A stretch of DNA of 64,000 nt from an uncultured Anaerolineaceae bacterium (GTDB taxonomy: Bacteria > Chloroflexota > Anaerolineae > Anaerolineales > DRMV01). The position numbers were made by a program, and so were the translations under genes. Each line of letters begins with the position of its first letter. Position 1 is the stretch's first letter. Of this stretch, positions 31,574-61,015 are shown one piece after another. The notes beneath the pieces are model-generated. The model made no database searches. It saw nothing but the letters and a program-made list of their open reading frames with translations, and was not told the DNA's origin. The DNA lies in contig CAYSXA010000001.1 in NCBI GenBank assembly GCA_964435005.1, positions 2,237 to 66,236 on the forward strand. The letters run 5' to 3'.

Positions 31574-31601
31574 GGTTCCGTTCAGTTGAGGAGGAATGAT
31601 C

Positions 31602-32090
31602 ATGGCACGCGGTTTGACGTTCGACGAGTTCGAAGTCGGCGCCCGCTACATCTCGCAAGGACGCACGGTCACCGAGGCCGACGTGGTGGCCTTCGCCGGT
31701 CTGTCGGGTGACTTCAATCCCCTGCACACCAATGCCGAATTCGGACGCCAGACGCCTTTCGGGGAGCGCATCGCCCACGGTATGCTGATCGTCGCCATGG
31801 CGACCGGCATGGCGAACTGGACGGGCATCTTCGAAGGCACCACGCTTGCTCTGATGGAGCAGGTGATCCGCTACAAGGGGGCGGTGAAGTTCGGCGACAC
31901 CGTGCACCTGGAACTCGAAGTGCTGGACAAGCGCGAGACCTCTAAACCCGACCGGGGGGTGGTGCGCTTTGCCGCGCGTGTGCGCAACCAGCGTGACGAG
32001 GTGGTGGTGGACGGCGAATGGACGCTGCTCATGCGGCGGGAACGACCCAAAGAGACCGTGACCGGAGGGGAACATGTTGCTCAAGGATAA
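31602..32090 (+). CDS. MaoC-like (R)-specific enoyl-CoA hydratase / hot-dog dehydratase
   Basis: FAGLSGDFNPLHTNAEFGRQTPFGERIAHGML motif. ATG 31596 is an alternative start. Confidence 0.85.
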   Translation: MARGLTFDEFEVGARYISQGRTVTEADVVAFAGLSGDFNPLHTNAEFGRQTPFGERIAHGMLIVAMATGMANWTGIFEGTTLALMEQVIRYKGAVKFGDTVHLELEVLDKRETSKPDRGVVRFAARVRNQRDEVVVDGEWTLLMRRERPKETVTGGEHVAQG

Positions 32091-36446: not shown

Positions 36447-36477
36447 GAGAGGTGACTCTCACCTGAGGAGGTATTGG

Positions 36478-38226: not shown

Positions 38227-38238
38227 GGAGGTGCGAGC

Positions 38239-38829
38239 ATGAGCAAAGTGTACAGCCTGATGTTTGCCGGTGTGGGCGGCCAGGGGTCGCTGACGGCGGC
38301 GGAAATCACCTCGCTGACCGCTGTGTTGGCCGGGTACGATGTGAAGCAAACCGAGGTGCACGGCGTGTCCCAGCGCGGCGGGAGCGTGGAGACACACGTC
38401 CGCTTTGGTGAGATGGTCTATTCGCCCACAGTCACCCCCGGCGAAGCCGACGTGGTTGTCGCGCTGGAGAAACTGGAAGCGCTGCGCTTCGCCCACTACG
38501 TGGATCGGGAAGGTGGCACGGTGCTGGTGAACGACTTTGAGATCGTGCCTGCCTCGGTCGCCAACGCGGCGGAGTTGTATCCCCATCACGCGCTGGAATA
38601 TCTGCAACAACAGGGCGTGCGGCTGATGGTGGTGCCCGCTTCGGAGATCGCCCGCGACCTGGGCGATGTGCGCATGACGAACGTGGTTATGCTCGGTGCG
38701 CTCTCCACCCTGCTGCCCTTGCCGGAAGAGACCTGGCTTAAGGCACTGCGGATGCGTCTGCCGAAGAAAATCCTGGAACCCAATTTGAAGGCTTTTGCTG
38801 CCGGTCAACAACTGCGGCAAAGTGCATAG
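38239..38829 (+). CDS. iorB: Indolepyruvate:ferredoxin oxidoreductase beta subunit, copy 1
   Basis: FAGVGGQGSLTAAEI...VHGVSQRGGSVETHVRFG. 196 aa. Confidence 0.9.
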   Translation: MSKVYSLMFAGVGGQGSLTAAEITSLTAVLAGYDVKQTEVHGVSQRGGSVETHVRFGEMVYSPTVTPGEADVVVALEKLEALRFAHYVDREGGTVLVNDFEIVPASVANAAELYPHHALEYLQQQGVRLMVVPASEIARDLGDVRMTNVVMLGALSTLLPLPEETWLKALRMRLPKKILEPNLKAFAAGQQLRQSA

Positions 38830-38839
38830 GAGGAGACCC

Positions 38840-40132
38840 ATGTCCCCCGAACGAGAAGGCCGTGAACTGATTTACGACTGGAACGAGGTGGATGCGCCAC
38901 CGAAGCCAACGCACCGCGTCCTGGTCACCGACGAGACGTTGCGCGACGGACTGCAATCGCCCTCAGTCACGCATCCCGAAATTCAAGACAAGGTGTACCT
39001 GCTCTACCTGATGCGCGACCTGGGCGTGGACGCCGCCGACCTGGGGCTGTGCGGGGCGGGCGAGAAGTTCAAGTACCACGTCACCGTGCTGGCGCGCGAG
39101 ATCGCCAACCAGGGCATGCCCATCCAGCCGCAGAGCGCTGCCCGCACCATGATCGAAGACATCGCGCCCATTGTGGACGCATCCGAGGAGGCGGGTATCC
39201 CCATCGAGGCGGCCATCTTCCTGGGCACCAGCCCCATCCGCCAGTACGCCGAGGGCTGGACGCTGGACTTCCTGCTCCAACGCACGGAGGAGTCGGTGCG
39301 CTTTGCGGTGGATCATGGTCTGCCGGTGATGTTCGTCACCGAGGACACCACCCGCGCCCACCCGGACGTGCTGCGTCAGGTCTATACCGCCGCCATCCGC
39401 GCCGGTGCGCAGCGCATTTGCCTCTCGGACACGGTGGGTCATGCCACACCCGAAGGTACGTATGCGCTGGTGTCGTTCATGCGCCAGGTGGTGGACGAGG
39501 TCAATCCGGAAGTGGGCATTGACTGGCACGGGCACCGCGACCGCGGCATGAGCATCGAGAACACGCTGGCGGCCATCCGCGCTGGCGCCGACCGCGTGCA
39601 CGCCTGCGGTCTGGGCATCGGCGAGCGCAGCGGCAACACGCCGATGGAACTGCTGCTGGTCAACCTGAACCTGCTCGGTTGGGCCGACCGCGACCTCACC
39701 CGTTTGCCGGAGTACTGCCAGGTGATCTCAGAGAAGTGTGGCGTACCCATCCCCTTCAACTACCCTGTGGTCGGCGCGGACTCCTTCCGCACCTCGACTG
39801 GCGTCCACGCGGCAGCCATCATCAAGGCGCTGGACAAGGGCGACACCTGGCTGGCCGACCGCGTGTACTGCGGTGTGCCCGCCAGCATGGTGGGGCGGCA
39901 ACAGGGCATCGAGATCGGCCCGATGTCCGGCGAATCCAACGTGCGCTTCTACCTGCGGCAGCGCGGCATTGAGGAGCATCCCCTTTTCCTGAAGAAGATT
40001 CTTGAGGCCGCCAAGCGGTCCAACCGTCTGCTGGAGGAGGAGGACGTGCTGCGCATGGTGCGCGTGCTGCGTGAGCGTCTTCGCCGCCAGGAAGACGTGG
40101 AGGACATGGACGTGGAGACTCTGTTCCAGTGA
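38840..40132 (+). CDS. 2-isopropylmalate/homocitrate synthase-family (DRE-TIM, LeuA-like) 2-oxoacid:acetyl-CoA condensing enzyme without a LeuA regulatory domain
   Basis: VTDETLRDGLQSP, DTVGHATP, WHGHRDRGM..ENTLAAIRAGADRVHACGLGIGERSGNTPMELL. 430 aa. ATG 38840. Confidence 0.75.
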   Translation: MSPEREGRELIYDWNEVDAPPKPTHRVLVTDETLRDGLQSPSVTHPEIQDKVYLLYLMRDLGVDAADLGLCGAGEKFKYHVTVLAREIANQGMPIQPQSAARTMIEDIAPIVDASEEAGIPIEAAIFLGTSPIRQYAEGWTLDFLLQRTEESVRFAVDHGLPVMFVTEDTTRAHPDVLRQVYTAAIRAGAQRICLSDTVGHATPEGTYALVSFMRQVVDEVNPEVGIDWHGHRDRGMSIENTLAAIRAGADRVHACGLGIGERSGNTPMELLLVNLNLLGWADRDLTRLPEYCQVISEKCGVPIPFNYPVVGADSFRTSTGVHAAAIIKALDKGDTWLADRVYCGVPASMVGRQQGIEIGPMSGESNVRFYLRQRGIEEHPLFLKKILEAAKRSNRLLEEEDVLRMVRVLRERLRRQEDVEDMDVETLFQ

Positions 40133-44776: not shown

Positions 44777-45625
44777 ATGGATATGTCGGTAGAAGTGTTG
44801 CTTTCCGCAAAGCAGATACGTAAAACCTTCGGCGGCGTGCTGGCCGTTAACCGGGTGGATTTCGAGGTGCGGCGCGGCGAAATTCTGGCGTTGATCGGAC
44901 CCAACGGCGCGGGTAAGACCACCATTTTCAACCTGATCACGGGTTTTCACCGGCTGGACGGTGGAGAGATCACCTTCGAGGGGGAACGTATTGACCATCT
45001 GCTACCGCATCAGATCGCCGCGCGCGGCATTGTGCGCACCTTCCAGAACCTGCAAATCTTCCACAACATGACGGTGCTGGAGAACGTGATGGTGGGTCTG
45101 CATCGCAGCGGACGCAGCGGACTGGTGGAAGCCATGCTGCGCCTGCCGCGCGCGAGTCGGGAGGAGCGTCGCTTTCGTCAGTACGCGCGCGACATCCTGG
45201 CGATGTTCGGCCTGGCCGACCAGGCCGAACTGCCCGCTGGCGCGTTGCCCTTTGGCAAGCAGCGCTTGCTGGAGATCGCCCGCGCGCTGGCCGCCCGCCC
45301 TCGTTTGCTGATGCTCGACGAACCGGCTGCCGGGCTGACCACCACGGAGACGATTGAACTGGACGAGATCATCCAGCGCCTCCGCGAAAACGGCCTGACG
45401 ATTTTCCTGGTGGAGCACGATATGGACCTGGTGATGGGCATTGCCGATCGGGTAGTGGTGCTGCACTACGGAACCAAACTGGCCGATGGCACGCCATCCG
45501 AGGTGCAAAACAACCCGGCAGTCATCCAGGCGTATTTGGGCACCGACTGGCAGGGCGATACCCGTCTGTTCTGGGAGCCCACGCCGCCTTCTCACGCTTC
45601 GGATGTGGAGGTGCCCCATGCTTGA
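44777..45625 (+). CDS. Liv-type ABC transporter ATP-binding protein (LivG-like)
   Basis: Walker [25 protein letters not shown] signature region, LMLDEPAAG. Carries a 27-aa tail after the usual ..AYLG end. Confidence 0.88.
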
Positions 45626-46418
45626 GGTGCGCGGCATTTCCACCTTCTACGGACGCATCCAGGCGCTGAAGGAGGTCTCTCTGGAGGTGCACCAGGGTGA
45701 GATCGTCACCCTGATCGGCGCGAACGGCGCGGGCAAGACCACGCTGCTGAACAGCATTTCGGGGCTTGTCCCGCCGAAGTCCGGCCAGATTTTGCTCGAT
45801 GGCGATGAAATCACCCATCTTTCGCCGGAGGCCATCGTGGCGCACGGCATCAGCCAGGTGCCAGAGCGGCGGCAACTGTTCGGCACGTTGACCGTGCGTG
45901 ATAACCTGCTGCTGGGCGCTTACCTGCGCCTGCGTCGGGGGGATAAAGCCGGCGTGGAGCAGGACATCGAAGCGATGTTCGAACTTTTCCCGGTGCTGCG
46001 CGAGCGACATAAACAACTGGCGGGGACGCTTTCCGGCGGGGAGCAGCAGATGGTTGCCATTGCGCGTGGCCTGATGGCGCGCCCTAAGGTGCTGTTGCTG
46101 GACGAGCCGTCGTTGGGGCTGGCCCCGTTGCTGGTGCAGGAAATCTTTCGTGTGTTGCGCCGCCTGCGTGACCAGGGCACCACCATTCTGCTGGTGGAGC
46201 AGAACGCCCGTGCCGCGCTGTCCATCGCCGACCGCGCCTATGTGCTCGAAACCGGGCGCGTGGTGCTCTCCGGCTCGGCGCAGGAGTTGGTTGCCAATGA
46301 GCAGGTGCAGACAGCGTATCTTGGACGACGGAGAGACCATCCGCGAGTGCCCGAAGGGTATGTTATAACTTCCTCGGTCACTGAACAACCTTCGAGCAAC
46401 GGACAAAGGAGCGAACCC
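45618..46418 (+). CDS. Liv-type ABC transporter ATP-binding protein (LivF-like); no in-frame stop, so the ORF continues into iorA copy 2 (to 48200)
   Basis: Walker A GANGAGKTT, LSGGEQQMVAIARGL, LLLDEPSLGLAP, family C-terminus ..QTAYLG at about 46325. A 31-codon low-complexity linker then leads to the iorA ATG at 46419, in the same frame. Confidence 0.8.
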
Positions 46419-48200
46419 ATGAAACGAGCCTTGATGAGCGGAAATGAGGCCATTGCTCGCGGCGCATGGGAAGGCGGGGTGGAGGTCGCCACCGCTTACC
46501 CAGGCACGCCCAGCACCGAGATTCTGCAAAACGTGGCGCTGTATGAGGACATTTACGCCGAGTGGTCGGCCAACGAGAAGGTGGCGTTGGACACCGCCAT
46601 CGGCGCAGCCTACGCCGGCAAGCGGGCACTGGCGGCGATGAAGCACGTCGGCCTGAATGTGGCCTCGGAGGCGCTGTTCTACTCGTCCTACACCGGCGTG
46701 AACGCCGGTCTGGTGATCGTTACGGCGGACGATCCCGGCATGCACTCCTCGCAGAACGAGCAGGACAACCGGCACTACGCTCGCTTCGCCAAAGTGCCCA
46801 TGCTGGAGCCTTCGGACAGCCAGGAAGCAAAGGATTTCGTCAAACTGGGGCTGGATTTGAGCGAGCAGTTCGATACCCCGGTGCTGCTGCGTACCACCAC
46901 CCGTACCTCGCACGCCAAGACGGCAGTCACGCTGGAGGAGCGCCACCCGGTGGAGAAGCGGCCTTATGTCAAGCAGCCGTCCAAGTACGTGATGATCCCC
47001 GGCTACGCGCGCCAGCGGCATCCGGTGGTCGAGGAGCGCACGCGTAAATTGCGCGAATGGGCCGAAACGGCAGAGATCAACCGTATCGAATGGGGTGACC
47101 GCTCGCTGGGCATCATTTCCTGTGGCGCGGCGTACAACTACGCGCGCGAGGTGTTCCCCAACGCCTCGTTCCTGAAACTGGGCATGGTCTGGCCGTTGCC
47201 GGAGCGGCTGATCCGCGAGTTCGCCGAGGGCGTGGAGCGGCTGGTGGTGATCGAGGAACTGGATCCCTTCATCGAAGAGTGGGTGCGTCAGATGGGCATC
47301 CCGGTGGAAGGGAAGAACATCTTCCCGCTGGTGGACGAATTGACGCCGGAGCGGGTGCGGCATGCGGCCATCGAAGGTGGGCTGCTGAGCAAGAATGGCG
47401 GCAACGGACACGGTCCCACGCCCTCGGATTTGCCGCGCCGTCCGCCGGTGCTGTGCGCCGGGTGTGGGCACCGTGATGTGTACTGGGTGCTGCGCAAGAT
47501 GAAGGTGACGGTGAACTCGGACATCGGCTGTTATGCGCTGGGCGTGTTGCCGCCGCTGGACGCCACCGACACTATCGGCGCGATGGGCGCCAGCATTGGC
47601 GTGGCGATGGGTATGCGGCACGCCGGTCTGGAGAAGGGCAACGTGGCGACCATTGGCGACAGCACCTTCTTCCACGCCGGGCTGCCCGCGCTGGCGACGG
47701 CGGTCTATAACAACACGCCGATCACGGTGGTAGTGGTGGACAATCGCACCACCGGTATGACCGGTCATCAGGGCAACCCGGCTTCTGGCGAGACGCTGAA
47801 GGGCGAGGAAGGTAAACGCATCGACATCGCTGCTGTGTGCCGCGCGATGGGCGTGGAGTTCGTCGAAGAGGTGGACGCCCGCGACCTGGAGAAACTGGAA
47901 CAGACCATCCGCGCGGCGATGAAGTTCAACGGCCCGGCGGTGGTGGTCGCCAAGACGGTGTGCGTGTTCGTCGCCAGTCACCCGCGCGAGGCGTACACGG
48001 TTGACCTGGAAGCCTGCAACGGCTGCACGATGTGCTTCCGCATCGGCTGCCCGGCGATTTACAAGAGCGAGGAGATGGACGAAAAGTACAACCGTCCCAA
48101 AGCCTGGATTGACCCGGCGCAGTGCGTGGGCTGTGGCCTGTGCTTCGACGTGTGTCCGCGACAGGCCATTGAGCCGGGGAAGGAGAAGGTGACGGTCTGA
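46419..48200 (+). CDS. iorA: Indolepyruvate (arylpyruvate/2-oxoacid):ferredoxin oxidoreductase alpha subunit, copy 2
   Basis: Own SD AAAGGAG (46405-46411) plus ATG 46419. MSGNEAIARGAWEGGVEVATAYPGTPSTEI, DDPGMHSSQNEQDNR, GDSTFFH, C-terminal CNGCTMC..CP and CVGCGLCFDVCP. Confidence 0.88.
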   Translation: MKRALMSGNEAIARGAWEGGVEVATAYPGTPSTEILQNVALYEDIYAEWSANEKVALDTAIGAAYAGKRALAAMKHVGLNVASEALFYSSYTGVNAGLVIVTADDPGMHSSQNEQDNRHYARFAKVPMLEPSDSQEAKDFVKLGLDLSEQFDTPVLLRTTTRTSHAKTAVTLEERHPVEKRPYVKQPSKYVMIPGYARQRHPVVEERTRKLREWAETAEINRIEWGDRSLGIISCGAAYNYAREVFPNASFLKLGMVWPLPERLIREFAEGVERLVVIEELDPFIEEWVRQMGIPVEGKNIFPLVDELTPERVRHAAIEGGLLSKNGGNGHGPTPSDLPRRPPVLCAGCGHRDVYWVLRKMKVTVNSDIGCYALGVLPPLDATDTIGAMGASIGVAMGMRHAGLEKGNVATIGDSTFFHAGLPALATAVYNNTPITVVVVDNRTTGMTGHQGNPASGETLKGEEGKRIDIAAVCRAMGVEFVEEVDARDLEKLEQTIRAAMKFNGPAVVVAKTVCVFVASHPREAYTVDLEACNGCTMCFRIGCPAIYKSEEMDEKYNRPKAWIDPAQCVGCGLCFDVCPRQAIEPGKEKVTV

Positions 48201-49084: not shown

Positions 49085-50404
49085 ATGCCTATCTGGAACC
49101 CTGAGTTCGAAACGATGGATCGTGACCGGTTGGCGAAGTTGCAGGGGGAGCGGTTGCGTCAGGTGGTCGAGTGGGTGTACCAGCGGGTGCCATTCTATCA
49201 GCGCAAGTTCAAGGAGGCCGGCGTCACCCCAGAGGACATCCGCTCGCTGGATGACTTGAAGCGGCTGCCCTTCACCACCAAGCAGGACCTGCGTGACGAG
49301 TACCCCTTTGGCTTCTTCGCCGTGCCGCTGGATGAGGTGGTACGCATCCACTGTTCGAGCGGCACCACCGGCAAACCGACCGTGGGCGGCTACAACGCGC
49401 ATGATATGAAAGTGTGGGCCGAGGTGATGGCGCGCACCGTAACGGCGGCGGGCGTGACGGACAAAGACATCTGCCACAACGCCTACGGATACGGCTTGTT
49501 CACCGGCGGCCTGGGCTTTCACCTGGGCTTTGAAACCGTGGGTGCGACCGTGGTGCCTATCTCTGGTGGCCTGACCAAACGGCAGTTGATGTTGATGGAG
49601 GATTTTGGCGCCACCGTGCTCACCTGCACCCCGTCCTACTCGCTGGTACTGGCCGAAGAAGCAGCAGAGCAGGGCTTCGACTTCAAGAGCCGCATGAAGG
49701 TGCGTGTGGGTATCTTCGGTGCGGAGCCGTGGACGGAGGAAATGCGTTTGCGTGTCCAGGAGAAACTTGGCCTGGAAGCCTACGACATCTATGGCCTGAC
49801 CGAGATCATCGGGCCTGGTGTCTCGGTGGAGTGCGAGCATCACAACGGCCTGCATATCTTTGAAGACCATTTCCTGCCAGAGATCATTGATCCCGAAACC
49901 GGTGAGCAACTGCCCTATGGTGAGGAAGGTGAGCTGGTGATCACCACGCTGACCAAGCAGGCCATGCCGATGATCCGCTATCGCACCCGTGACCGCACGG
50001 TGCTGCACGCCGAGAAGTGCGCCTGCGGGCGGACGATGGTGCGCATGGAGAAGGTGCGCGGTCGCACCGACGACATGCTGATCGTGCGCGGTGTGAACGT
50101 CTTCCCCTCGCTGGTGGAGAAGACGTTGTTAAGCATTGACGGTCTGGAGCCGCATTACCAGATCGTGGTGGATCGCCCCAAAGACCAGTTGGACCACCTG
50201 GAAGTCTGGGTGGAAGCCAGCAAGCGTTACTTCGAGCCGGTGGACATGCAGGCGTTGGATGCACTCAAGCGCCGCACGGAAGCCGAGCTGGCCGAAGCGC
50301 TGGGCATTCATGCCGAGGTCAAGTTGATGGGGCCGCACACTATCGAGCGCTCGCTCGGCAAAGCCAAGCGTGTGCTCGATAAGCGCAAAGTGTACCAGGA
50401 CTGA
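49085..50404 (+). CDS. paaK: Phenylacetate-CoA ligase family (PaaK-like), copy 2
   Basis: [47 protein letters not shown]. 439 aa. Confidence 0.9.
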
Positions 50405-50697
50405 TGCGCGTTCACGTGCGCCTGGGTGAACCGTTCTGGCGGGTGGTGGGCCAGCGTGAAGTCGAGGTCGTGTTGCCGGCGGGTAGCAGCCTGGCCGACC
50501 TGCTGGCCCATCTCCGCCAGATGTACCCTGATCTGGAGACGGAGATGGGCGCTGCGCCGCCGTTGCTCTTCCTGGACGACGACGAAGCCGACCCGGAAAC
50601 CCTGCTTTCCGAGGGCGATCGGGTGCATCTGCTCTGGCCGATCGCAGGCGGAATGGAGAGTACCGCACCTGTTCCCCCATTCCGCATCCCTCATTAA
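50404..50697 (+). CDS. MoaD/ThiS-like ubiquitin-fold protein with a 14-aa extension after the Gly-Gly motif
   Basis: Beta-grasp-like pattern ending ..GDRVHLLWPIAGG, followed by MESTAPVPPFRIPH. 1-nt overlap with the paaK stop. Directly upstream of aor. Confidence 0.6.
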   Translation: MRVHVRLGEPFWRVVGQREVEVVLPAGSSLADLLAHLRQMYPDLETEMGAAPPLLFLDDDEADPETLLSEGDRVHLLWPIAGGMESTAPVPPFRIPH

Positions 50698-50726: not shown

Positions 50727-52577
50727 ATGAGCCGTACAGCGATCATTGACTTATCTCGCGGCGAAGTCCGCTACACCGAAACGCCACGCGCGCTGGTGGA
50801 AGCCTACCTGGGCGGGCGCGGGTTGAACATGGCCTACCTGCGCCACTACCTGCGGCGTGCGGGCGATCCGCGCGCGGTGGACCCGCTGGGGCCGGAAAAC
50901 CCGCTGATCTTCGGCGCGGGGTTGCTCACCGGCACCATCGCGCCCAACGCGGCGCGCTTCAACGTCTCCGCTCGCTCGCCGGAAAGCGGCATCCTGGGGG
51001 ATGCGAACTGCGGCGGATTCTTTGCCGCGGCCATGCGCAAAGCTGGCTTCGACCGTCTGGTCATCCTGGGACGCGCGGATCGCCCCGTCTATCTGTTGTT
51101 GGAGGACGGTCAGGTACACATCCTGGACGCCGGTGATCTGTGGGGTACGCGCGTGATCGAAGCGCAGGCGCAACTCAAGGCCCGCCACGGTCCTGGCACG
51201 GTTTCGGCGGTCATCGGCCCGGCAGGGGAACATCAGGTGCGCATGGCGGCCATCATGACGGGCAAGAAGAACGCCGCCGGTCGTGGCGGCATGGGCGCGG
51301 TGATGGGGAGCAAGAACCTGAAAGCGGTCGTGGCGCGCGGTGGCAAGGCCATCGCCGTCGCTCAGAAAGAGACCCTGCGTCAGATCCGCATCCAGCAGCA
51401 ACAGGCGCTGAAGAAGTCCAAGGTTGTGCAGGTGCTGGGACGGGTGGGCACGCCGCTGCTTTACGAGGTCAGCAACCGGCTGGGAGCCATCCGCACCCGC
51501 AACAGCCAGGAAAACTACTTCGAGGACACGCTGAACGCCGAAGAGATCGAAAAGTACTCCGACAAGATGCTGGCCTGTACCTCGTGCGTGGTGCATTGCC
51601 GGCATCGCAACACGCTGGGCGGCGAAGGGCCGGAGTACTCCACCATCGGCCTGCTGGGGGCGAACATCGGCATTGCGCCTACCGATCAGGTGATCACGCT
51701 GAACAACCTGGTCAACGACCTGGGGCTGGATGCCTCGTCCACCGGCTCCATCCTGGGTTGGGCGATGGAACTCTACCAGCGGGGCCTGATCGACGACGAG
51801 ATGACCGAAGGCCCGCTGCTGTGGGGGGACTATGAACGGGTGTATGACCTGATTGAGGAGATCGCCTACCGGCGCGGCTTCGGCGACGTGCTGGCGGAGA
51901 GCACACAGGCAGCGCGCTTCTTCCCGCCGGAGGCGAAAGACTACCTGATTGCCGTGAAGAACCTGCCGCAATCCGACCCGCACGATGTGCGCTACTTTAA
52001 GGGCTTTGCGCTGGGTATCGCGGTTGCCAGCCGGGGCGCGGATCACCTGCGCAACCGCCCCACGCTGGAGGTCTTCAAGCTGCCGGACGAGGTACGCGCC
52101 AGCATCTACGGTCGCGTGAACGACCCCGACCCCACCGGTTACAGGGACAAGGGCCTGATTGTGGCCTGGAGCGATGACATCTTCGCCGTGACCGATTGCC
52201 TGGGCATCTGCAAGTTCGTCACGCGTGGCTTCAACAGTCCGCACCTGCTGGGCTACCAGGAGTTCTGCGATCTGATCGAGGCAGCCACCGGTCTACACTA
52301 CACGCCAGAGACGCTGCGAGCCGTCGGGCGGCGGGTGCTGGACACCGAACGGATGATCAACGCGGATTTTGGCCTCAGCCGTGCAGACGACACGCTGCCT
52401 AAACGGTACTTCGACGACCCGATACCAGCCCGCAAGACCAAAGGTCATCATGTAGACCGCGAGCAGTTCCAGCGCATGTTGGACGAGTATTACGCCGAAC
52501 GCGGCTGGGATGCGGAAGGGCGCGTGCCGGCGGGTCGCCAGGCGGGGATCGATGCGTTGATTGCCCAGTTGGGATAA
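50727..52577 (+). CDS. aor: Tungsten-type aldehyde:ferredoxin oxidoreductase (AOR family)
   Basis: N-terminal ..EAYLGGRGLNMAYL.., [4Fe-4S] ligands CTSCVVHC plus DCLGICKF. 616 aa. Confidence 0.9.
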   Translation: MSRTAIIDLSRGEVRYTETPRALVEAYLGGRGLNMAYLRHYLRRAGDPRAVDPLGPENPLIFGAGLLTGTIAPNAARFNVSARSPESGILGDANCGGFFAAAMRKAGFDRLVILGRADRPVYLLLEDGQVHILDAGDLWGTRVIEAQAQLKARHGPGTVSAVIGPAGEHQVRMAAIMTGKKNAAGRGGMGAVMGSKNLKAVVARGGKAIAVAQKETLRQIRIQQQQALKKSKVVQVLGRVGTPLLYEVSNRLGAIRTRNSQENYFEDTLNAEEIEKYSDKMLACTSCVVHCRHRNTLGGEGPEYSTIGLLGANIGIAPTDQVITLNNLVNDLGLDASSTGSILGWAMELYQRGLIDDEMTEGPLLWGDYERVYDLIEEIAYRRGFGDVLAESTQAARFFPPEAKDYLIAVKNLPQSDPHDVRYFKGFALGIAVASRGADHLRNRPTLEVFKLPDEVRASIYGRVNDPDPTGYRDKGLIVAWSDDIFAVTDCLGICKFVTRGFNSPHLLGYQEFCDLIEAATGLHYTPETLRAVGRRVLDTERMINADFGLSRADDTLPKRYFDDPIPARKTKGHHVDREQFQRMLDEYYAERGWDAEGRVPAGRQAGIDALIAQLG

Positions 52578-52673: not shown

Positions 52674-53963
52674 ATGGGAATGACGTTGGCCGAAAAGATC
52701 CTGGCCGCGCACAGCGGCAAAACCGAGGTGCACGCCGGGGAGTTCGTGAACGCCAAAGTGGATCTGGTGCTGGCGTCCGAACTGTCCGGTGTGGTCGCCA
52801 TCGATGCCTTTCGCAAGATCAAAGGCGCGCGGGTGTTCGACCCGCAGAAAGTGGTCTTTGTGATGGATCATTTCACTCCCAACAAAGACATCAAGAGCGC
52901 CGAGATCGTGAAAAAGTGCCGCGAGTTCGCCCAGGAGACCGGTATCCGTCTGTACGATGTGGGACGGGCGGGCATTCAGCACGTGCTGCTGCCGGAGCAA
53001 GGGCTGGTCTCGCCGGGGGACATCATTGCCGGCGCGGACTCGCACACCTGCACTTACGGCGCGCTGGGGGCGCTGGGCACCGGCATCGGGTCCACCGACG
53101 CGGCGGCAGCCATGGCGCTTGGCGAGTTATGGTTCAAAGTACCGGAGACCATCAAAGTCGTCTACCATGGACGCCCGCGCCCTGGCGTGGTGGGCAAGGA
53201 CATCATTCTGCATACCATCAAGGTCGTCGGCGTGGCGGGCGCGCGCTACATGGCGATTGAGTACAGCGGGGAGGCGGTCGGGTATCTGCAAATGAGCGAC
53301 CGTCTGACCATGGCAAACATGGCGATCGAAGCCGGTGCGATGGCCGGGCTGTTTCAGGCCGACGAGGTTACGATGGCGTTCTTGCAGCGCGCGGGTGCGC
53401 GCCCCGGCGTGGCCTATCGGCCCGATCCGGATGCACATTATGCCCGCGTGGTGGACATTGACCTTTCCGACCTGGAGCCGCAGGTGGCCGTGCCCTATCT
53501 GCCAGAGAACAGCGTGCCGGTTTCCGAGGTGGCGGGGCTGGAGATCCATCAGGTGGTGATCGGGATGTGCACCAACGGCACGCTGGACGATCTGCGACAG
53601 GCGGCGGCAGTGCTGCGCGGGCGCAAGATCCATCCGCGCGTGCGAGCCATCATCATCCCCGGAACGCCCCAGGTGTACCGCGACGCATTGAAAGAGGGAC
53701 TGGTGGACATCTTCATGGACGCCGAGTGTGTGGTCAGTATGAGCACTTGTGGGCCGTGCCTGGGCGGGCACATGGGCGTGCTGGCCGCCGGGGAGCGGTG
53801 CGTGTCCACCAGCAACCGCAACTTCCGCGGACGGATGGGGCACATGCAGTCGGAAGTGTACCTCGCCAGTCCCGCGGTGGCGGCAGCTTCCGCCGTGGCA
53901 GGTTGCATTGCCTCGCCGGAGGACATCGGCGTTTCACCGGACGTAGTACGGGTGTATGTGTAG
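52674..53963 (+). CDS. Aconitase-family dehydratase large subunit (LeuC/HacA-type, archaeal-style about 420 aa)
   Basis: MTLAEKILAAHSGK, DHFTPN, GADSHTCTYGALGA, cluster Cys GMCTNG and CGPCLG, STSNRNFRGRMG. Confidence 0.88.
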   Translation: MGMTLAEKILAAHSGKTEVHAGEFVNAKVDLVLASELSGVVAIDAFRKIKGARVFDPQKVVFVMDHFTPNKDIKSAEIVKKCREFAQETGIRLYDVGRAGIQHVLLPEQGLVSPGDIIAGADSHTCTYGALGALGTGIGSTDAAAAMALGELWFKVPETIKVVYHGRPRPGVVGKDIILHTIKVVGVAGARYMAIEYSGEAVGYLQMSDRLTMANMAIEAGAMAGLFQADEVTMAFLQRAGARPGVAYRPDPDAHYARVVDIDLSDLEPQVAVPYLPENSVPVSEVAGLEIHQVVIGMCTNGTLDDLRQAAAVLRGRKIHPRVRAIIIPGTPQVYRDALKEGLVDIFMDAECVVSMSTCGPCLGGHMGVLAAGERCVSTSNRNFRGRMGHMQSEVYLASPAVAAASAVAGCIASPEDIGVSPDVVRVYV

Positions 53964-54022: not shown

Positions 54023-54418
54023 GTGTCGGAGGAGGAGCGGCTGCGGGCGGATCCCTTCGCCCAATCGCTGGGAGCGGAGTTGCTGAGCGTGCATCCTGGT
54101 GTGGCCAAGGCGGCCATCACGGTGTGCGAGGGACATTGCAACGTGCTCGGCTGGCCGCACGGCGGGATGATCTTTACCCTGGCGGACTACGCCTTCGCGG
54201 CGGCCTGCAACGCCGGAAACCCGCCCACCGTGGCGGTGCACATGGATATGACCTTTCTCACCCCGGCGCGAATCGGCGAGCGGTTGGAGGCCGAGGCCGT
54301 GCGGCGCGGTGGTCAGGGACGCACTCATCTCTATCGCCTGAGCGTGTACGGCGAAGACCGCCGCCTGATCGCCGAAGGGTATGGACTGGCAAGGACGTTG
54401 AAGGAGACGGAGGCATGA
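54023..54418 (+). CDS. paaI: PaaI/PaaD-type hot-dog thioesterase
   Basis: DPFAQSLGAELLSVHPG.A......CNVLGWPHGGMIFTLADYAFAAAC. GTG start. 131 aa. Confidence 0.8.
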   Translation: MSEEERLRADPFAQSLGAELLSVHPGVAKAAITVCEGHCNVLGWPHGGMIFTLADYAFAAACNAGNPPTVAVHMDMTFLTPARIGERLEAEAVRRGGQGRTHLYRLSVYGEDRRLIAEGYGLARTLKETEA

Positions 54419-55965
54419 GTTTCACCCATTTCTATCACACCACCCTGGGCGAGTTGCTGACCACCCAGGCCCGCATCCACGGCAAGCGTCCCTACCTGCG
54501 CCTGGGCGAACGCACCTGGACGTATGCTCAGGCGGAGGAGGCCGCGATCTCCCTGGCCGGGGCGCTGATCGACCTGGGGCTGCGTCCGGGCGACCGGGTG
54601 GCCGTGATGCTGCCCAACCTGCCGGAGTACGTGATCACCCTGTTCGCGGCAGCAAAGGCGGATCTGTTGCTGGTGCCGATCAACTTACGCCGCCATCCAG
54701 GCGAGGTGCGCGCCCGGTTCGAACGCACCCGCCCAAAAGCAGTGGTCACATTTTCTCAACCGGAAGAGTTCTGGGGCGTGGATCACCTGGAGATGGTGCG
54801 CACCATGCAGCCCGATTTGCCCTTCCTGGAGCATATCATTGCGCTGGAGGGCGGCGATGGCGTGCTGGACTGGGCTGCGCTCTGTGAACACGACGGCCCG
54901 CCCCCGCTGGCAGACGTCCGTCCACAGGACGCGGCGGCCATTGTTCACACGCTGGGGAGCGTCGGTACGCCGCGCGGCGCAGTGCTCACCCACGGCGGAT
55001 TGGTGCGCAACGCCGCTGACATCGCCGCCAACCTGGCCTGCACCGAGGCGGATGTCTTCCTGGGGGCGGTGCCGTTCTCCAACACTTTTGGTCTCACTCC
55101 TACCATCCTGTCCTGCACCGTGGCCGGCGCGCAACTGGTCTGCCTTCCGCGCTACCGGGCGGGGGAGGCGCTGCGGCTGATCCGTGAGGTGGGCGTCACC
55201 GTACATCACGGCGTGCCCACCATGTTTGCGATGGAACTGAACCACCCCGATTTCCGCCCGCAAGACTACGCCACGCTGCGAACCGGCATCATGTCTGGCG
55301 CGCCCTGTCCGCCAGAACTGGTGCGCCGCGTGCGCGAGCAGATGGATATCGCGCTGGTGCTGGCCTATGGCCTGACGGAAGCCTCGCCGTCGGTTGCCAT
55401 GACGCGCCTGGACGATGGCCCAATCACCGCCACCGAGACCGTGGGGCGCCCGATGCCGGACGTGGAGGTCAGGGTGGTGGACGAGCGCGGGCAGCCCCTG
55501 CCGCCCGGTCAGGAAGGCGAACTGTGCGTGCGCGGTTACAACGTGATGCGCGGCTACTGGCAGGACGACCGCGCGACCGCCGAGGTGTTGGACGCGGACG
55601 GCTGGCTGCACACCGGCGATCTGGCAGTGATCGACCCCGATGGCCCTATTCGCATTCTGGGGCGCAAGGACGAGGTGATCAACCGGGGCGGCTTCAAAGT
55701 CCATCCTGCGCCAGTGGAGATGGTCTTGCGGTCTCACCCTGGCGTGAAGGAGGCTGCCGTGGTTGGTGTGCCGGATGCCATCTACGGCCAACTCCCGGTG
55801 GCCTGCGTGGTACCTGGCCCGGGAGCCGATCTGGACGCAGACATGCTTCTGGCCTACGCTGCCGAACACCTGAGCGAAGATGCGTTGCCCTCGCGGGTGG
55901 TCTTCTTCGATGTGCTGCCGCGCCGTCCCAGCGGGGCGGTAGACAAGGCCTATCTGAGCGAGCGC
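54415..55965 (+). CDS. AMP-dependent acyl-CoA synthetase/ligase (ANL) domain; no in-frame stop, so the ORF continues into the LeuD-like domain (to 56466)
   Basis: ATGA overlap with paaI. ANL motifs AYGLTEASP, WLHTGDLAV, ILGRKDEVINRGGFKV. Atypical A3 (HTLGSVGTPRGA) and A10 (PRRPSGAVDK) motifs. Confidence 0.8.
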
Positions 55966-56466
55966 GTGCGCCTGCGCGGGCGGGCCTGGAAGTTCGGCGC
56001 CAACGTGGATACCGATGCCATCATCCCCGCCCGGCATTGCAACACCGCCGATCCGCGCGAACTGGCGCAGCACTGCATGGAAGATGCCGACCCCGAATTC
56101 GTGCACAAGATGCGGCGCGGCGACCTGATCGTGGCTGATGAGAACTTCGGTTGCGGTAGTTCTCGCGAGGTGGCTCCCATCACCATCAAGGCTGCCGGCG
56201 TGAGCGCGGTGATCGCCAAATCCTTCGCCCGCATCTTCTTCCGCAATGCGATCAACATCGGCTTGCCTATCCTGGAATGTCCTGAAGCGGTGGACGGCAT
56301 CCAGGAGGGCGACGAGATCGAGGTAGAACCCGCTACCGGCATCATCCGCAACCTGACGCGGGGTGAGACCTATCAGGCCGCCCCCTTCCCGGACTTCTTG
56401 CGGCAAATCATCGACCGGGGCGGTTTGCTGGCCTACGTTCAAGACCGTCTGGCAGGAAAGGTGTAA
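55966..56466 (+). CDS. Aconitase-family dehydratase small subunit (LeuD/HacB-type), encoded in frame with the preceding ligase
   Basis: (V)RLRGRAWKFGANVDTDAIIPAR..., ENFGCGSSREVAPITIKAAGVSAVIAKSFARIFFRNAINIGLP. A possible internal GTG at 55966, but there is no stop upstream. Confidence 0.8.
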   Translation: MRLRGRAWKFGANVDTDAIIPARHCNTADPRELAQHCMEDADPEFVHKMRRGDLIVADENFGCGSSREVAPITIKAAGVSAVIAKSFARIFFRNAINIGLPILECPEAVDGIQEGDEIEVEPATGIIRNLTRGETYQAAPFPDFLRQIIDRGGLLAYVQDRLAGKV

Positions 56467-56467
56467 C

Positions 56468-57616
56468 ATGGTTGATTTTTCACTCTCCGATGAACAAAAG
56501 TTCATGCGCGAACTGGCGCACAAGTTCGCCGAGAAGGAGATCCGTCCCATCGCGGCGGAATATGACGAACGGGAAGAAGTGCCCTGGGAGGTGATCAAGA
56601 AAGCTGCACAGGCCGGCTTCCTCTCCTACTACATCCCGGAGGAGTACGGCGGGGGTGGCGTGACCGACCTGCTGACCCACGTGCTAGTGGATGAGGAACT
56701 CTTCTGGGGCTGTGCTGGGGTGGGAACCATCCTGGGCGGCACCAGCCTGTGCGTCACACCGATTCTGATCGCCGGCACGGAGGAGCAGAAGCAAAAGTAC
56801 CTGTCCCTGTTCTGCGACCCGGAGCATCCGCGCCTGGGTGCGTTCGCGCTCACCGAGCCGTCCGCCGGCTCCGATCCGGCTAGCATGTCTACCCACGCGG
56901 TGCGCGAGGGCGATTACTACATCATCAACGGCTACAAGACATTTATCACCAATGGCGGCATTGCCGACCTGTATGTGGTGTTCGCCACCGTAGACCCCAG
57001 TTTAGGGCATCGCGGCATCACCGCGTTCATCGTGGAGAAGGACACGCCGGGCCTGGTGCCGGGGAAGAAAGAGAAGAAGATGGGCATCCGCGCCTCGCAC
57101 ACTGCCCAGCTGGCCTTCGAGAACATGCGTGTGCCGGTCTCCAACCGGTTGGGTGCGGAGGGCGATGGCTTCACGATTGCCATGAAGACGTTTGAGATCA
57201 CGCGCGTCCACGTCGCCATCGGTGCAGTGGGTATCGCGCGCGCGGCCTTCGAGTATGCCCGCGATTACGCCAACGAACGTGTGCAATTTGGCAAGCCAAT
57301 CATCCAGCACGAGGCGGTTGGTTTCATGCTGGCGGATATGGCAATGCAGATCGAGGCCGCGCGATTGCTGTGCTGGCAGGCCGCCTGGCTGCACGACCAG
57401 GGGAAGACGAATACCTACTATGCCAGCATGGCGAAAGCGTTCGCGGCGGACATGGCGATGAAAGTCACCACCGATGCGGTGCAGGTGTTAGGCGGGTACG
57501 GCTATATCCGCGAGTATCCGGTCGAAAAGTGGATGCGCGACGCCAAAATCGTCCAGGTGTACGAAGGGACATCCCAGATTCAGCGGCTGATCATCTCCCG
57601 CCATCTGATGCAGTGA
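56468..57616 (+). CDS. Acyl-CoA dehydrogenase
   Basis: FSLSDEQKFMRELAHKFAEKEIRPIAAEYDE, FALTEPSAGSD, C-terminal QVYEGTSQIQRLIISR. 382 aa. Confidence 0.9.
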   Translation: MVDFSLSDEQKFMRELAHKFAEKEIRPIAAEYDEREEVPWEVIKKAAQAGFLSYYIPEEYGGGGVTDLLTHVLVDEELFWGCAGVGTILGGTSLCVTPILIAGTEEQKQKYLSLFCDPEHPRLGAFALTEPSAGSDPASMSTHAVREGDYYIINGYKTFITNGGIADLYVVFATVDPSLGHRGITAFIVEKDTPGLVPGKKEKKMGIRASHTAQLAFENMRVPVSNRLGAEGDGFTIAMKTFEITRVHVAIGAVGIARAAFEYARDYANERVQFGKPIIQHEAVGFMLADMAMQIEAARLLCWQAAWLHDQGKTNTYYASMAKAFAADMAMKVTTDAVQVLGGYGYIREYPVEKWMRDAKIVQVYEGTSQIQRLIISRHLMQ

Positions 57617-57724: not shown

Positions 57725-58807
57725 ATGAAAACCTATAACATCGGCGTCATCCCCGGCGACGGCATTGGCCCTGAAGTGGCTGCTGAGGGCCTTAAGGTGC
57801 TGCGCACCGTGATGGAAATCGAGGGCTTCGACTGCAACCTGGTCGAGTACCCGTACTCCGGTGAGTATTACCTGAAGACCAAAGAACTGGTTCCTGAGCG
57901 GGTGATCGACGAGTGGCGCACGCTAGACGCGGTTTTCCTGGGCGCCATCGGGCATCCGGATGTGGAGCCGGGGCTGGTGGAGCGGTCGGTCATTCTGGGA
58001 CTGCGCTTCGGGCTGGATCTGTACATCAACCTGCGTCCGGTCAAACTGTATGCCCCGCACCTCACCCCGCTGAAGGACAAGCAGCCGGAGGATATGGACT
58101 TCGTGGTGGTGCGCGAAAACACCGAGGGGTTGTACGCCCAAATTGGCGGTTTCTTAAAAAAGAACACGCCGGACGAAGTGTCCACCGTGATCGGGGTGTA
58201 CACCCGCAAGGGGGTGGAGCGCGCGGTGCGCTATGCATACGACCTAGCTCGCCGCCGCAAGCAGGAACTCGGAAAACCCGGTCGCCTGACGCTGGTGGAC
58301 AAGGCCAACGCGGTGCGCCCACACGACATCTGGACACGCGCCTTCGCCGAGGTTGGCGAGGAGTATCCCGATGTGGAACAGGATCACGCTTATGTGGACG
58401 CCTGCACCATGTGGATGGTGAAGAACCCGGAGTGGTTTGACGTGATCGTGACCACCAACCTGTTCGGTGACATCATCACCGATCTGGGCGCTGCGCTGAC
58501 CGGCGGGATGGGCATCGCAGCGTCAGGCAATCTGCACCCCGGCAAGACCTCGATGTTCGAGCCGATTCACGGCTCTGCGCCCAAGTACGCCGGCAAGAAC
58601 GTGGCCTGTCCGCTGGGGGCGATTCTGGCGGTCAGTATGATGCTGGAATATTTGGGCGAGAAGCGGGCTGCCACGCTGATCGAAAACGCGATCAGTGACC
58701 TGATGGTGAGCGGCGCCATCCCATCCGCAACCACACGCAGCGGCCTGAGCACCACTCAACAGGGAGACATGGTGGTGGAAGCCATTCGCAAGCAGGTGGA
58801 TGGGTAG
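57725..58807 (+). CDS. Isopropylmalate/isocitrate dehydrogenase-family beta-decarboxylating dehydrogenase (closest by eye to tartrate/D-malate dehydrogenase TtuC type)
   Basis: IGVIPGDGIGPEV, VRENTEGLY, NLFGDIITDLGAAL.GG.GIAAS.N, EPIHGSAPKYAGK. 360 aa. Confidence 0.85.
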   Translation: MKTYNIGVIPGDGIGPEVAAEGLKVLRTVMEIEGFDCNLVEYPYSGEYYLKTKELVPERVIDEWRTLDAVFLGAIGHPDVEPGLVERSVILGLRFGLDLYINLRPVKLYAPHLTPLKDKQPEDMDFVVVRENTEGLYAQIGGFLKKNTPDEVSTVIGVYTRKGVERAVRYAYDLARRRKQELGKPGRLTLVDKANAVRPHDIWTRAFAEVGEEYPDVEQDHAYVDACTMWMVKNPEWFDVIVTTNLFGDIITDLGAALTGGMGIAASGNLHPGKTSMFEPIHGSAPKYAGKNVACPLGAILAVSMMLEYLGEKRAATLIENAISDLMVSGAIPSATTRSGLSTTQQGDMVVEAIRKQVDG

Positions 58808-58895: not shown

Positions 58896-58991
58896 CCACT
58901 TGCCCGGAAATCACCCTGATGGTAGGATAAGCGCAACCCGATTGCGATGGCGGGGTTGTCACCCTGGGAAATCTCATCGCTTGGAGCGTGC

Positions 58992-60506
58992 ATGTTCAAC
59001 AAGGTCTTGATTGCCAATCGAGGGGAGATCGCCGTCCGTATCTTGCGGGCGTGCCGTGAACTGGGACTGCAAACGGTGGCTGTGTACTCCGAAGCCGACC
59101 GCCAGGCCATGCACGTGCGCTATGCGGACGAGGCGTACTGTATCGGCCCGGCCCCGTCGCGCGATTCCTACCTGCGCATGGATCGCATCCTGGAGGTAGC
59201 GAGGAAGAGTGGCGCGGGCGCCATCCATCCAGGCTACGGCTTCCTGGCCGAGCGGGCAGACTTCGCTCAGGCGTGCGCCGATGAGGGCATTGTGTTCATC
59301 GGTCCCAAACCTTCGGCCATCGCTGCGATGGGCGACAAAGCTGTGGCGCGCGCCACCGTGGCTGCGGCGGGTGTGCCGGTCGTCCCTGGCACGGAGGGCG
59401 AGGGCAGCATGAGCGACGAGGAATTGCTCGCCATTGCGCCCAAAATCGGATTCCCCTTGCTCATCAAGGCCACCGCTGGAGGCGGCGGCAAGGGTATGCG
59501 TGAGGTGCGCAGTCTGGACGAGATGCCTGCCTTGCTTCAGGCCGCCCGCCGCGAGGCCGAGGCTGCCTTTGGCGACGGCAATGTCTATCTGGAGAAACTG
59601 GTCGAGGGCGCGCGACACATTGAAATCCAGATCCTGGCCGACGCTTATGGTAACGTGATCCACCTGGGCGAGCGCGAGTGCTCCATCCAGCGCCGTCACC
59701 AGAAACTGCTCGAAGAATCGCCATCGCCTTTCGTGGACAAGAATGAGGAGTTGCGTCGGCGTATGGGTAAGGTCGCCGTGCGCGCGGCGCAGGCGGTGGA
59801 TTACGTCAACGCAGGTACCATCGAGTTCCTGGTGGACAAGGATGGCAACTTTTACTTCCTGGAGATGAATACCCGCCTGCAGGTGGAGCATCCGGTTACC
59901 GAAATGGTCACTGGGGTGGACATTGTCAAGGAACAAATCCGCATCGCGCGTGGGCGACAACTTTCATACCGCCAGGAAGACATCCAGATGAACGGGTGGG
60001 CCATCGAGTGCCGCGTGAACGCCGAAGATCCCTTCAACAACTTCATGCCGTCTACCGGAAAGATCGTTTTTAGCCAGCTTCCAACCGGGCCGGGTGTTCG
60101 CGTGGACACCGGCGTGTATCCTGGCTTTGAGATTTCCCCTTACTACGACTCGATGATCTCCAAAGTGATCGTGTGGGGGGAGACGCGCGGCCAGGCTCTG
60201 TTGCGTATGCGCCGCGCGTTGGAAGAGTACAAGATCATTGGGGTCAAGACGAACATCCCCTTCCACCAGGCGCTGCTGGAACAGCACCGCTTCATCGCCG
60301 GGCACTTCGACACGCGTTTCGTGGAAGAACGGTTCTCGCTGGAATCTGCCGGAGAGAGCCGCGAATACCGCCCGGAGATCGCTGCGATCTTCGCTACGCT
60401 GGTCGCGCACCAACAAGCCCAGCGCGCGGCGCACATCGTACAGCGCAATGCACGCGACACCAGTAACTGGAAGTGGCTCAGCCGCTGGGAGCGCCTGCGC
60501 CGCTAG
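58992..60506 (+). CDS. accC: Biotin carboxylase (AccC/PycA-type) with about 55-aa C-terminal extension
   Basis: [28 protein letters not shown]-grasp [22 protein letters not shown]. 504 aa. Confidence 0.9.
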
Positions 60507-60514
60507 GAGGCTCC

Positions 60515-61015
60515 ATGACGAAATATATTGCTACCATTGGAGACAAAGAATACCTGATCGAAATCCTGGACGAGCGTCATGTCCGCCTGGGAGACGAAGA
60601 GTTCGAAGTGGATTTCGAGTCGGTCAGCGGGCAGCCGGTGTACACGCTGCTGTTGAATGGCGAATCCTACGAGGCGCTGGTGCACTCTGCCGATGAGGGC
60701 TGGCAGGTGCTGCGGCGCGGCGTGCTCTATGAGGTGCAGGTGGAGGACGAGCGCGAACGTCGGCTGCGAGCATCGGCGGGCAGCGGCGTGGCACAGACCG
60801 GACCCTTCCACCTGAAAGCTCCTATGCCTGGCCTGGTCGTCGCTGTGCCAGTGAGCGAAGGGCAGGAAGTGAAGAAGGGTGAAGTGCTGGTCATCCTGGA
60901 ATCGATGAAGATGCAGAACGAGTTGAAATCGCCGCGCGACGGCACCGTGACCCGCATTCGCGTGCAGGCTGGCGACAGCGTGGAGCAGAAACAGACGTTG
61001 CTGAGCGTAGAGTGA
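60515..61015 (+). CDS. Biotin carboxyl carrier protein with an N-terminal BT-like domain
   Basis: C-terminal biotinyl domain APMPGLVVAV.V..G..V..G..L.ILESMKMQNEL. 166 aa. Confidence 0.85.
   Translation: MTKYIATIGDKEYLIEILDERHVRLGDEEFEVDFESVSGQPVYTLLLNGESYEALVHSADEGWQVLRRGVLYEVQVEDERERRLRASAGSGVAQTGPFHLKAPMPGLVVAVPVSEGQEVKKGEVLVILESMKMQNELKSPRDGTVTRIRVQAGDSVEQKQTLLSVE

Follow-up and report, generated by a model that had tools for sequence, protein, structure and literature searches.

An acyl-CoA synthetase-like module joined in frame to the isopropylmalate isomerase small subunit LeuD in Anaerolineales

Does an open reading frame (ORF) in which an acyl-CoA synthetase-like domain reads directly into LeuD, the small subunit of isopropylmalate isomerase, encode one real protein, and what could the synthetase-like half be doing there? 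The question is raised by a gene at positions 54415–56466 of a 64,000-nucleotide stretch of DNA (the window) from an uncultured Anaerolineaceae bacterium, contig CAYSXA010000001.1 of assembly GCA_964435005.1. The original prediction for this gene had placed three possibilities side by side, namely a genuine ligase-LeuD fusion, a degenerate ligase domain acting as a scaffold, and a lost stop codon or sequencing error. It is close to certain that the fusion is genuine, old and inherited across many Anaerolineales (Chloroflexota), an acyl-CoA-synthetase-like gene of the ANL superfamily having been inserted between leuC and leuD and fused, linker-free, to the beginning of a type-2 leuD. The whole package that we favor, a real fusion with a conventional LeuD half and a non-canonical, accessory ANL half, is on balance probable from the sequences compared.

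The frame opens with the ATG at 54415, which overlaps the stop codon of the upstream paaI gene (ATGA), and continues for 683 codons to the TGA at 56464–56466, uninterrupted as originally read; this gene, its parts and the operon genes given below with window coordinates are all on the forward strand. The predicted mass is 74.2 kDa, composed of 56.0 kDa of ANL module and 18.2 kDa of LeuD. The value of about 84 kDa proposed earlier has to be revised, as it fits the 84.9-kDa ORF beginning at GTG 54124, which overlaps paaI; the members of the family start elsewhere. Three Pfam domains are found in the single frame: AMP-binding (PF00501, residues 16–382, E value 7e-88), AMP-binding_C (PF13193, residues 434–507, E value 1e-17) and Aconitase_C. 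The ANL module occupies residues 1–517 (54415–55965), with an N-subdomain of residues ~1–430 and a C-subdomain of residues ~431–517, and the LeuD module, a type-2 small subunit carrying the GSSRE motif, occupies 55966–56466, where the NCBIfam model TIGR02084 matches residues 522–676 over model positions 1–155 of 156. The junction reads ...LPRRPSGAVDKAYLSERVRLRGRAWKFGANVDTDAIIP, so that the C-terminus of ANL runs with no linker into the N-terminus of LeuD (SERVRLRGRAW, 55957–55989), in agreement with the first description. V518 of the fusion corresponds to the start Met of standalone LeuD. The TGA at 55955–55957 is indeed out of frame, and so is the TAG at 55940.

A lost stop, a frameshift or an assembly chimera joining two separate genes would explain such a frame, and its probability is practically nil. 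The identical 683-residue protein is present on two further independent assemblies, a JGI metagenome contig and an SRA (Logan) contig. A search covering 5.8 billion proteins returned at least 120 clusters at 90% identity, stemming from different studies, in which all three domains are present (120 of the 120 listed, 670–713 residues long and 62–86% identical). The comparison with orthologous loci that had been proposed as a check found no stop codon, the junction being open and of constant length in all 16 independently assembled loci, whose DNA has diverged. Over 121 sequences the spacing from G507 (in motif A10) to W525 (in the first LeuD strand) is exactly 19 residues, without one insertion or deletion. 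Nor does the junction retain an intergenic remnant or a Shine–Dalgarno (SD) sequence, unlike a read-through that occurs elsewhere in the same window. That frame, LivF-like/IorA (45486–48200, forward strand, 904 residues), has an ABC ATPase domain at residues 45–280 and IorA at residues 314–895 with no stop between them, and at its junction (46320–46422) 33 in-frame spacer codons precede AAGGAG and ATG 46420, where IorA normally starts. The livF stop appears to be missing, with read-through into an independently initiated gene, and this frame keeps the spacer and the SD, neither of which the ANL-LeuD junction has.

A conserved internal start of LeuD at V518 was considered and rejected. In the DNA of 18 fused genes no SD precedes this position, and its codon is GTG in 12, GTC in 4, ATT in 1 and GTA in 1, so that several sequences have non-GTG codons there, unlike the standalone leuD described below. 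An Rfam scan of the whole window matched no leader, T-box or riboswitch.

Scanning a single genome for each GTDB species added 12 fused loci, every one from the same lineage, and the source names of the clusters, where given, are Anaerolineales, Anaerolineae or Chloroflexota metagenome-assembled genomes (MAGs). Public databases hold the architecture under generic names ('AMP-binding protein', 'fatty-acyl-CoA synthase', 'LeuD'), and a literature search for an ANL-LeuD fusion returned nothing relevant. When representatives at 50% identity were searched with the ANL domain, the matches were mostly multi-module nonribosomal peptide synthetases, and the family was represented only by P0122, a truncated fusion, and P0124. 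The latter (686 residues) is a divergent fused member, 55% identical across the ANL part, with a degenerate LeuD half (GSSSE for GSSRE and DTNM for DTDA); here LeuD, and not ANL, may be the half that has lost its function, in a possible paralogue.

The LeuD half has the features of an ordinary enzyme subunit. Taken alone it scores 248.5 bits against TIGR02084, above the cutoff of 245.85, and 243.8 bits within the fusion. It is homologous to solved LeuD and HacB structures, the best match being M. jannaschii LeuD 3vba (MJ1277; 196 bits, residues 2–162), and standalone LeuDs of other phyla found in the genome scan show 57–71% best-segment identity to it. GSSRE, the substrate-binding motif of LeuD (PMC7308503), is intact at 56155–56169 (GCGSSRE, residues 579–585) and invariant in the family alignment. 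The ratio of nonsynonymous to synonymous substitution rates (dN/dS, by the Nei–Gojobori method on unsaturated pairs) is 0–0.10 for LeuD, to be compared with 0.12–0.19 for the ANL N-subdomain and 0.02–0.12 for the ANL C-subdomain. A LeuC partner and a LeuB neighbor are present in the window and in all loci that reach that far. With the substrate-binding motif intact, an equivalog-level score, very tight selection and a conserved leuC...leuB order, we strongly infer that the LeuD half is an ordinary small subunit, pairing with LeuC in a dehydratase of the isopropylmalate isomerase type.

The substrate of that dehydratase is a separate matter. The recognition loop of the window LeuD (ARHCNT, 56029–56046) is clade-specific, the corresponding segment being ARYLNT or ARYLVT elsewhere. 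It reads H-C-N-T in the window and H/R/Y-C-N-T across the clade, whether fused or not (loci L003–L019 and L087–L091; proteins P0271–P0390), with Tyr replaced by His or Arg and Leu by an invariant Cys, and it is thus not the isopropylmalate-type loop (Y-L-N/V-T/Y). R-Y-L-N/V-T is the form in more than 60 LeuDs from other phyla, and the loops of solved structures are YLVY in 3vba (isopropylmalate/citramalate isomerase), YLRT in 2pkp (homoaconitase) and YNLT in 1v7l. Since this five-residue loop sets substrate preference (PMC7308503), the clade LeuCD may act on a substrate other than isopropylmalate.

Close relatives indicate that LeuD does not depend on its partner. At locus L019 (uncultured Anaerolineales) the syntenic operon encodes a standalone LeuD of 168 residues, 88% identical to the fused LeuD domain, which has its own AGGAG and an ATG exactly at the position of V518; the acyl-CoA dehydrogenase (ACAD) gene is present there, and paaI and ANL are absent. 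A protein search with LeuD only returned many LeuDs of the same lineage (74–89% identity), and among the listed matches 61 start M-x-L-K-G as L019 does and 15 are fragments of fusions. The 120 listed proteins are short ones, with no full-length fusions among them despite equal similarity, and the proportion of fused to unfused forms is not readable from this search. An earlier view of L019 as a single rare fission was dropped, because the search showed standalone and deletion forms to be common.

Some of the LeuDs carry an N-terminal tail of ~22 residues left over from the ANL A10 region and C-terminus (GPVRKDYLRERVRIRG), as in P0357, where MTRSEDPGPVRKDYLRERVRIRG compares with ...LPRRGSGPVRKDYLRERVRIRG of the fused proteins, and progressively decayed tails (MTWSEGSGSPRKDHLSDRVRLRG, MSWNKESGLEHNDPLSEQIRIRG) were found as well. 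The genes for tailed LeuDs of 185–189 residues (L087, 6001–6570; L088, 2106–2675; L089, 6001–6558), with the remnant MTRSEDPGPVRKDYLRERVRIRG, belong to an operon of IorB, HMGL, ThiS, AOR, LeuC, LeuD and LeuB, in which leuD directly follows leuC at the site of the fusion ATG. The tailed forms are most simply read as the result of an in-frame deletion that removed almost all of the ANL module. In a neighbor-joining tree with 30 LeuDs from other phyla the LeuD clade as a whole is monophyletic, and members with and without ANL interleave within it, which suggests that the ANL half was lost several times while the operon was kept; the number of losses is uncertain, the tree being built on ~160 columns and without support values. 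The comparison shows that LeuD function does not require the ANL half, as related lineages retain the operon with a standalone LeuD after deleting ANL. Substrate channelling by the fusion, raised in the original prediction, is weakened by the same observation that close relatives run this operon with LeuD alone.

The ANL half is a member of its superfamily, with AMP-binding and AMP-binding_C domains and the two-subdomain fold, and it falls below every NCBIfam cutoff, the best match being PRK06187 (384 bits, cutoff 476). The closest solved ANL structure is feruloyl-CoA synthetase 8wev, at 33% identity. An AlphaFold2 model of the fusion has a mean predicted local distance difference test score (pLDDT) of 83.5, mostly 85–97 in the ANL part, where the ANL fold is confident, and a Foldseek comparison with ANL structures gave an E value of 1e-49 and TM-scores to the target of 0.82–0.85.

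The departures from the canonical enzymes lie in the catalytic motifs. The P-loop, motif A3 (54946–54981), reads HTLGSVGTPRGA in the window, where 8wev has YTSGSTGRPKGA and the family consensus is HTLGSSGEPRGA; the core is TLGSVGTPRG in the window and TLGSSGEPRG in the family, and the canonical (T/S)(S/G)G(T/S)(T/E)GxPKG is not present. Both motif anomalies noticed at the outset, the atypical A3 with Arg for Lys and the Ala in place of the invariant C-terminal Lys (PSGAVDK), are borne out by alignment to 8wev, in which LPRRPSGAVDK of the window stands opposite LPTTGSGKILK; the A10 region (LPRRPSGAVDKAYL, 55915–55956) has Ala508 where the catalytic Lys would be. Among 121 sequences, A3 shows Leu for Ser in 117, Arg for Lys in 117, Lys in none, and Glu or Gln at the variable position in 95; the A4 His is Asn in 117 and the A9 Lys is Ala in 111. 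The position of the A10 Lys is taken by Pro (81), Ala (14), Leu (11), Val (5) or another residue (10), and never by Lys. An exhaustive search of the 50%-identity representatives with the ANL domain did not find near unfused relatives. The nearest ones found are 35–36% identical and have canonical TSGTTGxPKG and TGK, so the changes are specific to the fused clade.

Not everything has changed, as A5 (YGLTE), A7 (TGD) and A8 (GR), which contact Mg, phosphate and ribose, vary little or not at all among the 121 sequences. Arg424 and Lys428 in the A8 hairpin are clade-specific, and a Lys or Arg at A10+3 is conserved. Together with the dN/dS values, the ANL half is, by these measures, under constraint and altered rather than decayed. 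This bears on the scaffold idea of the original prediction, that is, a catalytically dead, stabilizing appendage of LeuD with no ligand-dependent role. The part of it that stands is that the canonical adenylation lysines are missing throughout the family, and repeated loss of the domain would also suit an appendage. A pure scaffold, however, has no need of the Mg-, ribose- and adenine-binding motifs YGLTE, TGD and GR, which are invariant across 121 sequences at ~65% overall identity; the dN/dS of 0.02–0.19 also speaks against it, and we consider a dead scaffold very improbable.

ANL enzymes are two-step catalysts whose A10 Lys is regarded as indispensable and, in the characterized members, is needed for adenylation. 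The P-loop and K-loop of these enzymes are said to be strictly required and to be highly conserved (bioRxiv 10.64898/2026.07.06.736331). Given the family-wide P-loop changes (Lys to Arg, Ser to Leu and a frequent Glu), Asn for the A4 His, and Pro or Ala for the A10 Lys, the ANL half seems unlikely to work as an ATP-dependent ligase of the standard two-step kind. It could nevertheless be a fully competent synthetase in which the lysine changes are compensated, making the CoA ester of, for instance, a short branched-chain or aryl acid. This ester would then be reductively carboxylated by IorAB to a 2-oxoacid that is elongated by the LeuA-like enzyme, LeuCD and LeuB, and the fusion would merely secure co-expression. 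Purifying selection and the invariance of A5, A7 and A8 are in keeping with this, the P-loop change from Lys to Arg is a conservative one, conserved basic residues (Arg424 and Lys428 in A8, Lys or Arg at A10+3) are at hand, the operon encodes the acyl-CoA-using IorAB, ACAD and PaaI, and proteins encoded by fused genes mostly belong to a single pathway. Against it stand the absence of the A10 Lys from 121 of 121 sequences, in most of which it is Pro, and the need for that residue in characterized enzymes; the P-loop has moreover lost its Ser and often gained Glu, the A4 His is Asn, and repeated deletion has removed the module from operons that are otherwise retained. We regard competence as possible but doubtful.

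In the explanation that we favor, the ANL half would instead have an accessory role, binding or processing an acyl-AMP or acyl-CoA species from that branch of the operon which deals with acyl-CoA and 2-oxoacids (IorAB, PaaK-type ligases, ACAD and PaaI). It might catalyze a thioester-only half-reaction, or it might be a ligand-binding domain riding on LeuD. Several points weigh against this explanation. The presumed catalytic incompetence is deduced from motifs, and Arg187, the A10+3 Lys/Arg or Arg424/Lys428 of A8 might compensate. There is no conserved adjoining adenylating partner for a half-reaction: PaaK-like genes occur near the fusion in the window, L010 and L016, with a weak 36% match in L015, whereas in L004 and L006 none lies within 10 kb. 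The C-subdomain of the model is posed as in the adenylation state, with a root-mean-square deviation (rmsd) of 3.6–3.9 Å to the adenylation-state structures 5bsw, 5bsm, 7tz4 and 1md9 and of 9–9.5 Å to the thioester-state structures 5bsr, 4g37 and 3rg2, which is probably neutral at best and says little about function. As to the other half, the atypical HCNT loop would leave the assignment to leucine biosynthesis unproven.

A bolder proposal, to which we attach a low probability, is that ANL is a pseudo-ligase turned into a ligand-operated switch of the LeuC-LeuD isomerase. Binding of acyl-AMP, acyl-CoA or a nucleotide would drive the classical rotation of the ANL C-subdomain, and the rotation, passed on through the rigid, linker-free junction, would reposition LeuD and so control the assembly or the activity of LeuC-LeuD. 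Such a switch would supply the pathway with regulation, as the LeuA-like synthase of the operon is without the LeuA_dimer feedback domain.

How does the protein compare with known systems? With acyl- and aryl-CoA synthetases (8wev; 4-coumarate:CoA ligase, 5bsm and 5bsw; MatB, 4fut) the ANL half shares the two-subdomain fold and recognizable, conserved motifs A1, A2, A5, A6, A7 and A8. It differs from them in the P-loop (TLGSSGEPRG for TSGTTGxPKG), in Asn for the A4 His, in Ala for the A9 Lys, in having no A10 Lys, and in that its C-terminus continues into LeuD. ANL folds that carry out a single half-reaction have precedents. AuaE of aurachin biosynthesis reportedly performs the thioester/transfer step only, adenylation taking place elsewhere. 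A natural split of the ANL half-reactions between PtmA1 and PtmA2 of platensimycin biosynthesis is cited in PMC6594144. PtmA2 and AuaE are ANL folds reported for the second step only, and the fusion's ANL half is likened to them by description; they are standalone proteins of secondary metabolism, whereas this ANL half is joined to LeuD and has no conserved adenylating partner next to it.

The fused LeuD matches type-2 LeuD (TIGR02084; MJ1277, 3vba) end to end, with GSSRE intact and leuC and leuB adjoining, but is preceded by a 517-residue N-terminal ANL module and has the loop HCNT in place of YLVY (3vba), YLRT (2pkp) or YLNT (most bacterial homologues). Fusions are familiar in the aconitase family, as in fungal Leu1 (LeuC-LeuD), in aconitase (domains 1–3 plus 4) and in AcnB (domain 4 first), and the fold of the small subunit (domain 4) can bear a covalently attached partner at its N-terminus. 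In those proteins the partner is the large subunit; here it is an unrelated ANL fold and LeuC stays separate. We also noted the LeuD motif within frames that run from stop to stop over 559 codons in a Dehalococcoidia MAG (L060, 4819–6495) and over 621 codons in a Rokubacteria MAG (L070, 4675–6537); these frames may be single leuC-leuD ORFs.

The gene neighborhood is conserved. In the 16 loci, as far as each contig reaches, the order is leuC, [paaI], ANL::leuD, [ACAD], leuB. An upstream leuC is found in 12 of them, the other four contigs ending within or just before the fusion, and leuB follows in every locus that extends far enough. A compact form, leuC-ANL::leuD-leuB, occurs in L003, L011, L012, L014 and L017; in the window, L004–L010, L013 and L016 the genes for a PaaI-type thioesterase and ACAD are present together, and among fused loci paaI is restricted to this second form. 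The window genes are leuC (52674–53963, 429 residues; TIGR02083, 621.5 bits, cutoff 610.65), the PaaI-type hotdog thioesterase (54023–54418; PF03061, and TIGR02286 at 106 bits, below cutoff), ACAD (56468–57616, 382 residues, with Pfam N, M and C domains; the best NCBIfam matches, AcrC-like and cyclohexane-1-carbonyl-CoA dehydrogenase, are both under cutoff) and leuB for 3-isopropylmalate dehydrogenase (57725–58807; NF002898, 429.5 bits, cutoff 393).

Upstream of leuC lie an aldehyde:ferredoxin oxidoreductase (AOR) gene at 50727–52577 and, 5' of it, a ThiS-like gene at 50404–50697, a pair also conserved in L003, L008, L014, L019, L087 and L089. In L003, L014, L019, L087 and L089 the genes iorA, iorB, HMGL-like, ThiS-like, AOR and leuC are contiguous; the HMGL-like synthase of L019 is the 440-residue ORF at 769–2091, and in L090 iorAB and the HMGL-like gene stand directly before leuC without a ThiS-like or AOR gene. 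Judged by gene order, iorAB, HMGL-like, ThiS-like, AOR, leuC is the ancestral arrangement. In the window the block of iorA, iorB and the HMGL-like (LeuA-like) gene (36421–40132; TIGR03336, 667 bits) stands apart from AOR-leuC, with an insertion between them that encodes a liv ABC transporter, two PaaK-like ligases and a second IorAB.

These partners invite another explanation, compatible with the ones above and not exclusive of them, in which leuC, ANL::leuD, leuB and the LeuA-like synthase form a paralogous module for 2-oxoacid chain elongation that has a substrate other than that of leucine synthesis and is tied to the metabolism of aryl or branched acids through IorAB, AOR, PaaK and PaaX, the ANL domain being part of the pathway. 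The clade loop H/R/Y-C-N-T in place of Y-L-N/V-T would fit, given that the loop sets substrate preference (PMC7308503). So would the synthase, which matches the isopropylmalate synthase model weakly (213 bits, cutoff 517) and has no LeuA_dimer domain, and the presence of IorAB and AOR as operon partners, with PaaX-like regulators downstream in L089 and L090. On the other hand LeuC, the LeuD domain and LeuB each pass the NCBIfam equivalog cutoffs for leucine enzymes, and we advance a separate elongation module tentatively, as an idea more apt to be wrong than right.

Some further observations concern the surroundings. PaaX is a phenylacetyl-CoA-responsive repressor, and the PaaX-like genes closely follow leuB in operons whose LeuD is not fused (L089, 7980–8705; L090, 8410–9261), a hint of acyl-CoA-dependent regulation of the operon. 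Directly after leuB the window encodes a biotin carboxylase and a biotin-carrier protein (58947–61015), as does L007 (4700–6217, 81% identical), and no carboxyltransferase was seen near these genes in the window or in L007. At 25394–32841 of the window lies a cluster with two HGD-D-type subunits and a pair of BcrAD/BadFG ATPases, after which come an enoyl-CoA hydratase and a short-chain dehydrogenase/reductase; going by its predicted subunits, the cluster is a benzoyl-CoA reductase or an enzyme of the 2-hydroxyacyl-CoA dehydratase type. Genes for a thiolase, a YbgC thioesterase, a zinc-dependent alcohol dehydrogenase and an amidohydrolase_2 protein lie downstream of it. The fusion thus adjoins a region of anaerobic aromatic or alicyclic acyl-CoA metabolism. 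HMG-CoA reductase, an HMG-CoA-synthase-like protein (ACP_syn_III_C) and a thiolase are encoded in a row at 17046–20602, as an upper mevalonate-pathway block.

In summary, both component families were already known and the architecture is new as a combination, set in a conserved, previously undescribed operon in which the recognition loop of LeuD is clade-specific. A large clade that has long been under purifying selection without the A10 lysine and with a remodelled P-loop is a natural experiment on that lysine, and it would show what the ANL fold does without canonical adenylation. With the rigid attachment to a subunit of an Fe-S dehydratase and the natural deletion derivatives of sister lineages, the fused, deleted and standalone forms provide a matched set for testing whether the module is catalytic, regulatory or vestigial. 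Because of the generic database labels, reconstructions of Anaerolineales metabolism may overlook leuD or count too many acyl-CoA synthetases. The operon of iorAB, the LeuA-like gene, AOR, leuCD and leuB suggests that acyl-CoA/2-oxoacid:ferredoxin chemistry is connected with the elongation of 2-oxoacids in Anaerolineales fermenters.

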